Part shown: positions 6,001 through 9,000 of the stretch, in pieces
Numbering within the stretch: the stretch's first letter is position 1
How the letters are laid out: every line of letters begins with the position of its first letter
Virus record (IMG/VR): IMGVR_UViG_2671180422_000003
Coordinates: 1 to 13,716 of that record
Source: a virus
Lineage: Duplodnaviria; Heunggongvirae; Uroviricota; Caudoviricetes
Strand: one strand, 5' to 3'
DNA length: 13,716 bases
Position numbers: made by a program

Positions 6001-9000
6001 TGCAAATAAAAAATTCCCGGATAAAATGAAAGCAGAGTTTTAAGCAAACCTTGTTTTCGATTATATGCCGAAGATAAATGTTAGTAACGGCATAATAAGT
6101 AAATATATAGCTGTGATAGCAACCCGCCACTGAGCGGGTTTTTTGTACCTGTAAACTTGGTGCAGTACAGTAAACACGCTGGTGGTCGTGAATACTGACT
6201 TTTTATCTTGCTGGCTTTTTAGACAAGAGTTATTGGTATGTCATGTTAACCAGAAGGGAAAAAGACATGCTAAAACAGCAAGATATGACAGAAACCGCCG
6301 CAGCAGTCCTTCATTTCTTACCTGCTGACAAGTGGGTAACGCCACGCATGATGACGAGAACTACCGGAGTAAGCGAAGCCCGGTGCCAGTTAATACTGAC
6401 TCAGTTAGTTCTGGCGGGGCTGGCGAAGGATAACGGCGGGTACGGGAATAAATTCAGACGCTGCCAGTAATGGCGGTTTCCTGCTGTGAAAATGGGCGGC
6501 TGGTGGGTGTTGGTAGCACCTGCCAGCCATTCGCTCATGCTTACTGGTCACAAGCGAACCACGGCCCACTGCTTTAGCGCAAAAGCAGAGTGAGCCTACC
6601 AGAGTTACGCTTACTGATCCATGAAAAATACTGTAAAAATAAACAGTGTTGATTTAATCAACGCTGATTGCCTGCATTTTATTCAGTCCCTGCCTGATGA
6701 TTCCATTGACCTGATTGTTACCGATCCGCCGTACTTCAAGGTGAAACCCAACGGCTGGGACAATCAGTGGAAAGGGGACGAAGATTACCTTAAGTGGCTG
6801 GACCACTGTCTGGCCCAGTTCTGGCGGGTGTTAAAACCTGCCGGAAGCCTTTACCTGTTCTGTGGGCATCGCCTGGCATCTGATATTGAGATCATGATGC
6901 GTGAACGTTTCAACGTGCTTAACCATATCATCTGGGCGAAGCCGTCCGGACGTTGGAATGGGTGTAATAAAGAAAGTCTGCGCGCATATTTTCCTGCCAC
7001 AGAGCGCGTTCTGTTTGCTGAACATTACCAGGGGCCATATCGCGGCAAAAGTGACGGCTATGCGGCAAAAGAAAGGGAACTCAAACAGCACATAATGGCA
7101 CCGCTGATATCGTATTTCAGGGATGCTCGTGCCGAACTGGGTATAACGGCAAAACAAATTGCCGAAGCCACAGGTAAGAAAAATATGGTTTCCCACTGGT
7201 TTGGTGCCAGTCAGTGGCAGTTGCCGAATGAGGCTGACTATCGGAAGTTACAGGCACTGTTTTCCCGTATAGCGGCAGAGAAGTTTCAGGAACAACAACT
7301 GGAACAACCACACCACCAGCTGGTGGCATCTTATGATTCACTGAATCGCAAATATTCTGAATTGCTGGATGAGTTTAAATCTCTCCGGCGCTATTTCTCC
7401 GTATCAGTCTCCGTGCCTTATACCGATGTCTGGATGCATAAACCCGTTCAGTTCTACCCGGGTAAACATCCGTGTGAGAAACCGGCGGATATGCTCAGGC
7501 AAATAATCAATGCCAGTAGTCGACCTGGTGATCTGGTTGCTGATTTTTTTATGGGATCCGGTTCCACAATAAAAGCAGCAATGGCGCTGGGGCGTCGGGC
7601 CTTAGGTGTTGAGCTTGAGTCAGAGCGGTTTAACCAGACAGTGAAAGAGATAAACGAGCTGGTGGGGAAATAATTTGGTGGCCACGTCAGGTGGCCTTTT
7701 TATTTCCATTACACAGCACCCGCATCTGCGAGGTGGGGTTATGAAATCCATGGATAAGTTAACAACGGGTGTCGCCTATGGCACCTCAGCAGGTAGTGCC
7801 GGTTACTGGTTTTTACAGCTGCTCGATAAAGTCACGCCCTCACAGTGGGCAGCAATAGGTGTGCTGGGTAGCCTGGTATTTGGCCTGCTGACGTACCTGA
7901 CAAACCTTTATTTCAAGATTAAAGAAGATAAGCGCAAGGCTGCGAGAGGTGAATAATGCCTCCATCATTACGAAAAGCAGTTGCTGCTGCTATTGGTGGC
8001 GGAGCAATTGCTATAGCATCAGTGTTAATCACTGGCCCAAGTGGTGACGATGGCCTGGAAGGTGTCAGCTACATACCATACAAAGATATCGTTGGCGTAT
8101 GGACTGTATGTCACGGACACACCGGAAAAGACATCATGCTCGGTAAAACGTATACCGAAGCAGAATGCAAAGCCCTCCTGAATAAAGACCTTGCCACGGT
8201 TGCCAGACAAATTAACCCGTACATCAAAGTCGATATACCGGAAACAACGCGCGGCGCTCTTTACTCGTTCGTCTACAACGTGGGTGCTGGCAATTTCAGA
8301 ACATCGACGCTTCTTCGCAAAATAAACCAGGGCGATATCAAAGGCGCATGTGACCAGCTACGTCGCTGGATATACGCTGGCGGTAAGCAATGGAAAGGCC
8401 TGATGACTCGTCGTGAGATTGAGCGTGAAGTCTGTTTGTGGGGGCAACAATGAGCAGAGTAACCGCGATTATCTCCGCTCTGGTTATCTGCATCATCGTC
8501 TGCCTGTCGTGGGCGGTCAATCATTACCGTGATAACGCCATCGCCTACAAAGAACAGCGAGATAAAAAAGTCAGTGAGCTGAAGCAGGCGACCGCCACCA
8601 TTACTGACATGCAGCAGCGCCAGCGTTCTGCTGATGCACTCGATGCTAAATACACGAAGGAGTTAGCTGATGCGAAAGCTGAAAATGATGCTCTTCGGCG
8701 CAAGCTTGATAATGGTGGTCGGGTGTTCGTCAAAGGAAAATGCCCTGTGCCATCCTCAGCCGAAACCTCCAGCGCCTCCGGCATGGGCAATGATGCCACC
8801 GTCGAACTCTCTCCAGTTGCTGGACGAAACGTTCTCGGTATCCGGGACGGAATTATCCGCGACCAAACAGCACTGAGAACGCTTCAGGAATACATCAGGA
8901 CGCAATGCCTTCGATGATAGCGATAATTTTACTCATCATCCTTCACATCTGGCTCTGTAGACAGGATGGTGATCACTTCTGGAGTGAATCCAGATTAAAC

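Follow-up and report, generated by a model that had tools for sequence, protein, structure and literature searches.

M.EcoGII and M.EcoGI, encoded in a prophage of Escherichia coli O104:H4 C227-11, are the closest described counterparts of the gene analyzed here: orphan, prophage-borne adenine methyltransferases of 349-350 amino acids (aa) that belong to the PF01555 family (Murray et al. 2018, PMC5778455). For M.EcoGII, adenine methylation regardless of sequence context, silence in the native lysogen and slower growth upon overexpression have been reported, and the authors have proposed a role in anti-restriction (PMC5778455). The published work on M.EcoGII describes the open reading frame (ORF) alone (PMC5778455). 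Here we analyze a native gene of this family in a segment of 13,716 nucleotides (nt) from the virus record IMGVR_UViG_2671180422_000003 (hereafter the window), which the ORF calls and Pfam matches identify as a piece of a lambdoid prophage. The gene in the window is part of a cassette that consists, in this order, of an intrinsic terminator, a conserved block, a small winged-helix ORF, a structured leader RNA, the methyltransferase gene and a second terminator, with a box resembling the operator of the SOS repressor LexA located within the first codons of the methyltransferase gene (Table 1). The leader RNA and the box were not part of the original prediction for this region.

Several well-characterized systems resemble parts of this cassette. 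In the com-mom operon of phage Mu, Mom is a late, host-toxic, adenine-modifying anti-restriction enzyme subject to multi-level control that includes a small upstream protein and an mRNA structure hiding the translation start of the modification gene. The small upstream protein, the structured start site and a presumably toxic modifier are all shared with the cassette described here, but this is an analogy rather than membership: Mom does not belong to the methyltransferases, Com has a zinc finger in place of a winged helix (the small ORF lacks the Cys4 motif of Com-type zinc ribbons), the leader described here is much larger (140 nt, two domains), and LexA would substitute for OxyR/Dam in the control. 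The C proteins of restriction-modification systems are Xre-type helix-turn-helix proteins of about 80 aa that bind C-boxes and mainly time the expression of the nuclease. They share with the present system the location of a small ORF of the DNA-binding type directly upstream of a DNA-modification gene, on the same strand, but the protein encoded in the window is a winged helix, no nuclease accompanies it and no C-box could be recognized, which sets it apart from this class. The 186 tum gene, the Gifsy antirepressors and the colicin operons are all controlled by LexA via boxes that overlap promoters; the canonical CTGT-N8-ACAG box, which ties a mobile element to the SOS response, is the same in the window, but here it is contained within the first ten codons, and no promoter was recognized in its vicinity. 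The Dam enzymes of T-even phages and P1, like the promiscuous alpha-class phage enzymes, are orphan phage methyltransferases that are thought to give broad protection against restriction. These and the alpha-class phage enzymes differ from the enzyme described here in class and motif order and possess an unrelated target-recognition domain, and we know of no leader of this kind associated with them. Promiscuous adenine methyltransferases of the alpha class have been described in phages by Drozdz et al., as cited in PMC5778455.

A structured leader RNA precedes the methyltransferase gene

The spacer between the small ORF and the methyltransferase gene measures 150 nt in the window and ranges from 142 to 152 nt in nearly all species loci; it is more strongly conserved than both flanking genes: the flanking proteins fall to about 50-60% identity whereas the spacer retains invariant blocks. 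The leader of the window folds with a minimum free energy well below that of shuffled sequences (z-score of -4.0), and the same two-domain fold recurs when the sequences from Providencia, phiP27, Kluyvera and Scandinavium are folded independently. In a plain MAFFT alignment of 24 species, which was not fitted to any structural model, 95.3% of the cells are paired, compared to 29-41% when the partners are slid by 1-3 columns, and 8 pairs include double substitutions. The first covariance model (R1) was derived from this unfitted alignment, and the second-generation model (R2) added further loci. In the fitted alignment of 64 distinct sequences, 26 of the 34 pairs show compensatory changes (299 cells, compared to 77 ± 10 in shuffles), and 90.8% of the cells are paired, as opposed to 24-40% in the slid controls, with agreement in the divergent subset; in an unfitted alignment of 28 divergent members, covariation persists in the apical helix. 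The high frequency of G-U pairs fixes the strand of the leader that is transcribed.

The matches to the covariance models are full-length, occur on the coding strand only and terminate at, or immediately beside, the start codon of the gene downstream. They include Yersinia phage P840, PhiR46_1, Vibrio phage VHML and dozens of uncultivated viral contigs, and among Enterobacterales and in VHML the leader precedes methyltransferases with as little as about 48% identity to that of the window. Across the approximately 1.4 Mb searched, in which most of the loci had been collected via the methyltransferase, matches are found only upstream of the methyltransferase gene and on its strand. Given the covariation and the fixed position and strand relative to a single gene family, the 140-nt element is a conserved structured RNA and a candidate cis-regulatory leader.

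The placement of the helices relative to the start codon suggests that the leader may act on translation. The 3' strands of the helices that close domain 2 occupy positions from about -14 to -1 relative to the AUG of the methyltransferase gene. This start has almost no Shine-Dalgarno sequence, in the window and across the family: the median energy of the duplex with the anti-Shine-Dalgarno sequence is -3.2 kcal/mol for the family, compared to -5.3 to -8.4 kcal/mol for five neighboring genes with a recognizable site. The leader may alter the expression of the gene downstream.

Two further features of the fold deserve mention. The UGGGC (6493-6497) and the distal GCCCA (6565-6569) are invariant in all 64 distinct sequences and can pair with each other, and the alternative pairings of UGGGC, with its partner in domain 1 or with the GCCCA of domain 2, hint at two conformers. 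A possible pseudoknot, formed by three pairs between the apical GUG of domain 1 and the CAC located 3' of GCCCA, is accompanied by double changes in 15 cells.

No match to the leader was detected in Rfam 15, either in the whole window at the gathering thresholds or in positions 6400-6700 at E-values up to 10, where the scan yielded just two chance-level matches, on the opposite strand. Several candidate identities were considered and rejected: weak Rfam matches to STnc130, Streptomyces-metK and MIR397 are at chance level; of the small RNAs known from prophages, AgvB and AsxR differ in being short and convergent and in adjoining inserted accessory (moron) genes, and the Pas RNAs and STnc100 are encoded at other locations; and the strings reminiscent of hammerhead and twister ribozymes (CUGAUC...GAAA and GGGCG/AAGC) do not fit the respective cores and have no model match. 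The search for the identity of the leader found no tRNA or tRNA-like element either. No description of the leader RNA, the intragenic LexA-type box or the partnership with a winged-helix protein was found in Rfam and the searchable literature, nor was any report found in that literature of LexA/SOS control or a leader RNA for M.EcoGII-type genes; an entry among the 8,495 unnamed viral candidate RNAs of a 2023 catalogue is possible.

The methyltransferase and its target-recognition domain

In the methyltransferase, motif IV (DPPY) is N-terminal to motif I (FxGxG), which is the order characteristic of the beta class, and the original prediction of an orphan beta-class adenine methyltransferase stands. 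The protein is identical (100%) to the methylase of phage cdtI, 89% identical to the reconstructed active ancestor Anc291, and 81% identical to M.EcoGII over the full length, with two single-residue gaps over 349 aa; the M.EcoGII sequence was taken from a machine-read copy of Supplementary Table S1 of PMC11551740, so that a few residues in the latter comparison might be wrong. Judging from these similarities, the protein is a member of the already characterized M.EcoGII family and not a new enzyme.

The solved structures of beta-class enzymes align only with residues ~9-115 and ~282-347, leaving about 165 residues unmatched, in agreement with the earlier observation that the region between the motifs is long. 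This region, however, is not an internal insertion, as had been proposed: it aligns colinearly with M.EcoGII, occupies the place at which target-recognition domains are found in beta-class enzymes and is the normal target-recognition domain of the family. In the AlphaFold2 model of M.EcoGII, the Rossmann domain comprises residues 1-134 and 260-349, and the middle module (residues 160-237) is a nucleic-acid-binding one with a helix-turn-helix within; the target-recognition domain is a four-helix bundle that includes the helix-turn-helix, accompanied by a charged linker (PMC11551740). In the sequence alignment, the window enzyme shares both the colinear helix-turn-helix domain and the charged linker. 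Accordingly, the suggestion that residues ~150-260 form a nucleic-acid-binding or target-recognition module holds, in line with the published model (PMC11551740), and the suggestion that the module was inserted does not hold within the enzyme's own family. Both the enzyme family and its target-recognition domain are thus already known.

Anc291 methylates both DNA and RNA, with no motif at the mapped sites of RNA methylation (PMC11551740), and, by similarity to M.EcoGII and Anc291, the copy in the window most likely is also sequence-non-specific and would modify any adenine, in DNA and, weakly, in RNA. The enzyme is an orphan by nature because a methylase that acts on any adenine cannot have a cognate restriction nuclease. 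In agreement with this expectation and with the original prediction, no restriction nuclease was identified among the ORFs and Pfam matches of the window or in the complete genome of phage mEp460, which carries a cassette that is 99.5% identical; the hallmark of type II restriction-modification, an adjacent cognate endonuclease, is therefore lacking.

A second, unrelated gene of possible relevance to adenine methylation is present in mEp460 (L271, positions 35775-36428), between the replication genes and the gene for the antiterminator Q. RefSeq annotates it as a phosphoadenosine phosphosulfate (PAPS) reductase, but according to the similarity recorded by the depositor it resembles a phage N-6-adenine methyltransferase, so that such phages may encode two adenine methylases. 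No counterpart of this gene is present in the window.

The small ORF, the LexA-type box and the prophage setting

The open frame of the small ORF reaches an ATG at 6243 (75 aa), but the conserved and annotated start is the ATG at 6267: it is preceded by a good Shine-Dalgarno sequence, AGAAGGGA, 7 nt upstream, and the resulting N-terminal sequence, MLKQQDM, opens every homolog. About 150 homologs were found in prophages of Enterobacterales, some of which are named 'TrmB family' in NCBI records. The 67-aa protein had been predicted to contain a helix-turn-helix-like segment and to be a putative DNA-binding one, and its AlphaFold2 model indeed is a winged helix with the H-H-H-beta-hairpin layout (predicted local distance difference test score, pLDDT, of 86.7). 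In a Foldseek search, the model resembles Z-alpha of ADAR1 (template modeling score, TM, of 0.82), TrmBL2, IclR-type proteins and the winged helices of SelB that bind the selenocysteine insertion sequence (SECIS) RNA; in Pfam, it shows no HTH_3/Xre match and only weak matches to MarR and TrmB.

In a scan with one genome per species, a gene of the M.EcoGII family (58-93% identical) is located 340-355 nt past the start of the small ORF in 23 of the 24 loci encoding the latter. A broadened profile detects the small ORF upstream in 92 of the 163 viral loci that were gathered via divergent methyltransferases. This tight synteny supports a functional link between the small ORF and the methyltransferase. 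A controller role, as originally suggested for the small ORF, is conceivable, but the protein is no Xre-type C protein and has no nuclease to control.

Upstream of the small ORF, a hairpin followed by a T-run is present in nearly all of the 24 aligned species-level loci, and between this terminator and the ORF, 25-60 nt upstream of the start, lies a partly palindromic block of constant length and variable center that is conserved in all 24. Neither a match to the consensus sigma-70 promoter at this block nor a significant Rfam match in positions 6040-6300 (E-values up to 10) was found. Possible roles of the block include those of an operator, perhaps one bound by the winged-helix protein, of a weak promoter and of an RNA element.

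The LexA-type box, a 20-bp site resembling the consensus TACTGT(AT)4ACAGTA, contains the CTGT-N8-ACAG core, for which the chance expectation is 0.23 per window, and scores 21.9 bits with a matrix derived from an informally compiled set of 20 E. coli LexA sites, compared to 15.5-28 bits for the training sites themselves and 19.7 bits for the best of 200 shuffles. Of 46 representative loci, 29 carry a box with a score of 16-24 bits at an identical offset. The box is retained although the encoded peptides differ (NTVKINS, NTVYLNS, NTGYSSS, STVNLSS, ANTVKISS) and a rare ATA codon is used, which points to selection at the nucleotide level. A second CTGT-N8-ACAG sequence (2467-2482, plus strand, near the start of the ORF at 2364-3200) scores 8.5 bits and probably occurs by chance.

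The cassette lies between Q with its tR'-type terminator, which marks the start of the Q-dependent late operon, and the lysis genes, and it is flanked by Q/tR' and a holin gene in every phage examined. In the window, the holin gene is followed by the genes for lysozyme and Rz. The DNA of positions 6046-7760 is 99.5% identical in mEp460 and Ayreon, 99% in the cdtI phage and 92% in SfV (orf47 and orf48), and the cassette was found in 1305 of 5426 complete E. coli genomes (~24%), including that of enterotoxigenic E. coli (ETEC) H10407, whose copy is 99.9% identical. In SfV, the cassette directly follows tR', without an accessory ORF in between. In the window, such an ORF is bracketed by two near-identical tR'-type terminators, one downstream of Q and the other at the upstream edge of the cassette, and looks like an accessory gene inserted along with a duplication of the terminator.

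Table 1. Positions of the cassette elements and neighboring features in the 13,716-nt window
Feature	Position	Strand	Evidence or remarks
Conserved block CTTGCTG-N11-CAGAGTTAyyTGTrTGTCA	6207-6244	+	alignment of 24 loci from different genera
Small winged-helix ORF, 67 aa	6267-6470	+	PHROG 331 (phrog_331, E=5e-26)
Structured leader RNA motif, 140 nt	6484-6623	+	fold and covariation; ends at methyltransferase AUG
Leader domain 1	6492-6538	+	AUGGGC/GCUCAU closes a long hairpin
Leader domain 2	6546-6620	+	GGUCA/UGAUC and AAGC/GCUU close the hairpin GGCCCAC-UGCUUU...AAAGCA-GUGAGCC
M.EcoGII-family beta-class N6-adenine methyltransferase, 350 aa	6621-7673	+	PF01555 (N6_N4_Mtase), E=2e-42
LexA (SOS) box-like palindrome	6629-6648		TACTGTAAAAATAAACAGTG; covers methyltransferase codons 3-9
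DPPY motif	6723-6734 (residues 35-38)	+	methyltransferase ORF
Target-recognition domain and charged linker	about 7098-7400	+	boundaries via the published M.EcoGII AlphaFold2 model (PMC11551740)
FxGxG motif (FMGSG)	7548-7562 (residues 310-314)	+	methyltransferase ORF
Intrinsic terminator, upstream cassette edge	6121-6146	+	terminator scan; annotated in Ayreon and SfV
Intrinsic terminator closing the cassette	7680-7704	+	terminator scan; annotated in Ayreon and SfV
cI-like repressor	807-1481	-	window ORF
DUF968/HNHc_6 protein gene	3576-4571		Pfam
Antiterminator Q	4585-5337		Pfam Antiterm, E=2e-52
tR'-type intrinsic terminator 3' of Q	5446-5472	+	aacccgccgctgagcgggttttttt; terminator annotated at the equivalent place in Ayreon
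Accessory ORF (insert)	5618-6043		phrog_4748
P21-type holin	7750-7956		Pfam PF04971; just after the closing terminator

The composition of the cassette varies among its relatives. In the Vibrio-type loci, the RNA is followed by a 41-aa ORF encoding a Cys4 zinc ribbon and then by the methyltransferase gene (positions 2337-2462 of L114; also L115-L118 and L122). The zinc ribbon matches phrog_6417, which is annotated as 'translational regulator' (E=2e-5), and Mu Com in Pfam (PF10122, E=0.0065), the latter with 16.3 bits, below the cut-off of 22.9; with a Com-like ORF ahead of the methyltransferase gene, the organization of these relatives resembles that of com-mom. In a genome of gut Enterobacteriaceae (L110, 3962-4284), the RNA motif is complete (96 bits) and the winged-helix ORF is truncated, but the methyltransferase gene has been replaced by unrelated short ORFs ahead of the holin, and this locus looks like a decayed cassette. 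A locus of E. albertii (L101) encodes a methyltransferase that is 95% identical to M.EcoGII and includes the winged-helix ORF, the RNA and the box; because all three elements are present there, the native gene type of the reagent enzyme shares the cassette architecture.

Some observations concern the rest of the window. In the early region of the prophage, two Rfam matches at the gathering level, isrK (2724-2800, plus strand, 64 bits) and C4 antisense RNA (2825-2912, plus strand, 82 bits), fall inside the ORF at 2364-3200. A full-length match to the Rfam IS009 RNA (12164-12362, plus strand, 228 bits) lies within the ORF at 11821-12405 and adjoins the tail-fiber region. The ORF at 9791-11821 (plus strand, 676 aa) is apparently chimeric, with an initial part that seems to represent another protein than the tail-fiber-like C-terminal part containing His/Gly repeats, and starts almost immediately after the lysis genes; because of this close juxtaposition, most of the head and tail genes seem to have been deleted, in which case the prophage would be defective. 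Complete E. coli genomes match, at best, only about 80% of the window.

Proposed function and control of the cassette

The scenario that we consider probable is that the methyltransferase is a late, Q-dependent, broadly acting anti-restriction enzyme, non-specific for adenine context, that is held under several layers of control. We infer the late timing from the location of the cassette: because it lies between Q/tR' and the lysis genes, productive transcription should require antitermination by Q. In lambdoid late operons, only the Q-modified polymerase should read through the terminators. Such Q-only read-through fits the silence of M.EcoGII reported in lysogens (PMC5778455). Under this scenario, the methyltransferase would be produced in the late lytic phase via Q-mediated antitermination and would hypermethylate the progeny phage DNA prior to packaging, shielding it from many adenine-sensitive restriction systems of the next host. 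Because indiscriminate methylation harms the host, further locks on expression appear to be in place. The leader helices, which cover the 14 nt preceding an AUG that is poor in Shine-Dalgarno sequence, would keep translation low until the fold is opened; the opener that we favor, by analogy with Com of Mu, is the upstream winged-helix protein, with a ligand or the methyltransferase itself as alternatives. By binding a putative operator on codons 3-9, LexA would prevent leaky transcription as long as the lysogen is uninduced, and the SOS signal responsible for prophage induction would also release it; that the box acts as a roadblock to read-through is a guess. The strongest version of this model, namely, that the leader represents a new class of RNA dedicated to non-specific methylases, in which a UGGGC two-state switch, a winged-helix RNA-binding translational activator that is analogous but unrelated to Com, and a LexA roadblock jointly form a three-part lock, is possible but tentative.

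Several observations weigh against parts of this scenario. With respect to the enzyme, the 19% divergence from M.EcoGII could in principle alter the specificity. With respect to the RNA, the strongest covariation comes from alignments made by fitting to the model. The winged helix is a generic fold whose members include RNA binders, and RNA binding by the small protein is a conjecture; moreover, VHML retains the RNA, yet no winged-helix ORF was detected at VHML-type loci, where a 98-aa ORF of L114 yields only a 25%-probability profile match. The Vibrio-type loci also lack the box, and, therefore, neither the box nor the winged-helix ORF is obligatory. Neither a promoter scan nor manual reading revealed a convincing sigma-70 promoter by the box on either strand, so that the usual mode of LexA repression is not evident; given the coding location, the conservation of the box could be driven in part by the protein or by an RNA hairpin, and the LexA matrix is based on an informally compiled set of sites. 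Finally, the conserved block upstream of the small ORF might be a promoter, which would weaken the case for exclusively late expression.

The alternative that survives best, although it appears doubtful, assigns no role in RNA binding to the small ORF, which would be a DNA-binding controller akin to C proteins that acts at the conserved block (6207-6244) and times its own operon. The similarity of the winged helix to DNA binders of the TrmB, IclR and MarR types and the presence of the partly palindromic block at all loci are compatible with such a role; however, no promoter is recognizable at the block, the protein does not have the Xre-type helix-turn-helix of the known C proteins, and the RNA motif persists in VHML, in which the winged-helix ORF is undetected.

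An unlikely possibility is that the leader is not a lock opened by a protein but a metabolite riboswitch, for instance, one that senses S-adenosylmethionine (SAM) or S-adenosylhomocysteine (SAH), a ribozyme or an RNase III processing site. Several of its helices contain invariant unpaired or bulged nucleotides, the invariant UGGGC has two possible partners (GCYCAU or GCCCA), suggestive of two conformers, and the product of the downstream gene uses SAM. Nevertheless, no riboswitch or ribozyme in Rfam matches the leader even at E-values up to 10, and, among the loci examined, the motif was seen only in front of this methyltransferase family or its Com-like ORF, and at the single locus that has lost the methyltransferase. 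Restriction to one gene family is more typical of protein-specific control, although this is a weak test given that the loci were mostly collected via the methyltransferase.

It is quite unlikely that the enzyme is a sequence-specific orphan methyltransferase involved in epigenetic regulation or self-marking, in the manner of Dam or CcrM. The target-recognition domain differs from that of M.EcoGII at some positions, the specificity is deduced from sequence comparison, and the VHML homolog, ORF17, is annotated just as a putative adenine methyltransferase. The identity of 81-89%, which extends over the target-recognition domain and the charged linker, is nonetheless to enzymes shown to be non-specific, and an elaborate repression scheme fits a toxic activity; by comparison, M.PflMI, which is the closest relative with site specificity, shares only ~27% identity with M.EcoGII and has no such linker (PMC11551740). 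Of the two roles originally suggested for the gene, anti-restriction thus agrees with the proposal of the M.EcoGII authors (PMC5778455), whereas motif-specific epigenetic self-marking is improbable for a relative of a non-specific enzyme.

It is very improbable that the spacer and codons 3-9 are conserved through hitch-hiking or coding constraint rather than through selection on an RNA structure and a LexA site. A 33-codon ORF does start at 6493 in the spacer of the window, phage annotators have called ORFs of 53-55 aa there, and the N-terminus of the methyltransferase, MKNTV..NS, is conserved. A conserved spacer peptide was nevertheless rejected because one-nucleotide indels disrupt the frame between genera; furthermore, the changes in the stems are compensatory, with pairing dropping to 24-40% in the slid controls, the invariant blocks of the spacer outlast the divergence of the flanking proteins, and CTG-N10-CAG is kept across NTGYSSS, STVNLSS and ANTVKISS, with a rare ATA codon.

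Finally, although the window is a fragment and encodes a DUF968/HNHc_6 protein, it is hardly credible that the gene is the methylase half of an ordinary restriction-modification system with the nuclease located beyond the window, given that Q/tR' and the holin bracket the cassette in every phage examined, that the complete mEp460 genome lacks a restriction nuclease, that DUF968 proteins are common between the replication genes and Q in lambdoid phages, with Q separating DUF968 from the cassette, and that a non-specific methylase cannot have a cognate nuclease.

M.EcoGII is widely used as a reagent in chromatin-accessibility and RNA-labeling methods, and the papers that characterize it call its natural biology, namely, its silence in the lysogen, its timing and what it protects against, unknown. 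The comparison presented here shows that native genes of this type belong to a conserved cassette, in which they are accompanied by a structured leader RNA, a putative SOS box and a gene for a winged-helix protein. The leader itself is a well-supported candidate for a phage cis-regulatory RNA, with 26 covarying pairs and a spread across phages of Enterobacterales and Vibrio, that is outside Rfam. The carriers of the cassette include Shiga-toxin, cdt and serotype-converting phages, and its control may affect the ease with which such phages cross restriction barriers. If the proposed model is correct, the cassette would constitute a safety lock with three components, not recognized before, that guards a DNA-modifying enzyme ranking among the most toxic known; this lock would be common to about a quarter of E. 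coli genomes and would extend to Vibrio phages.

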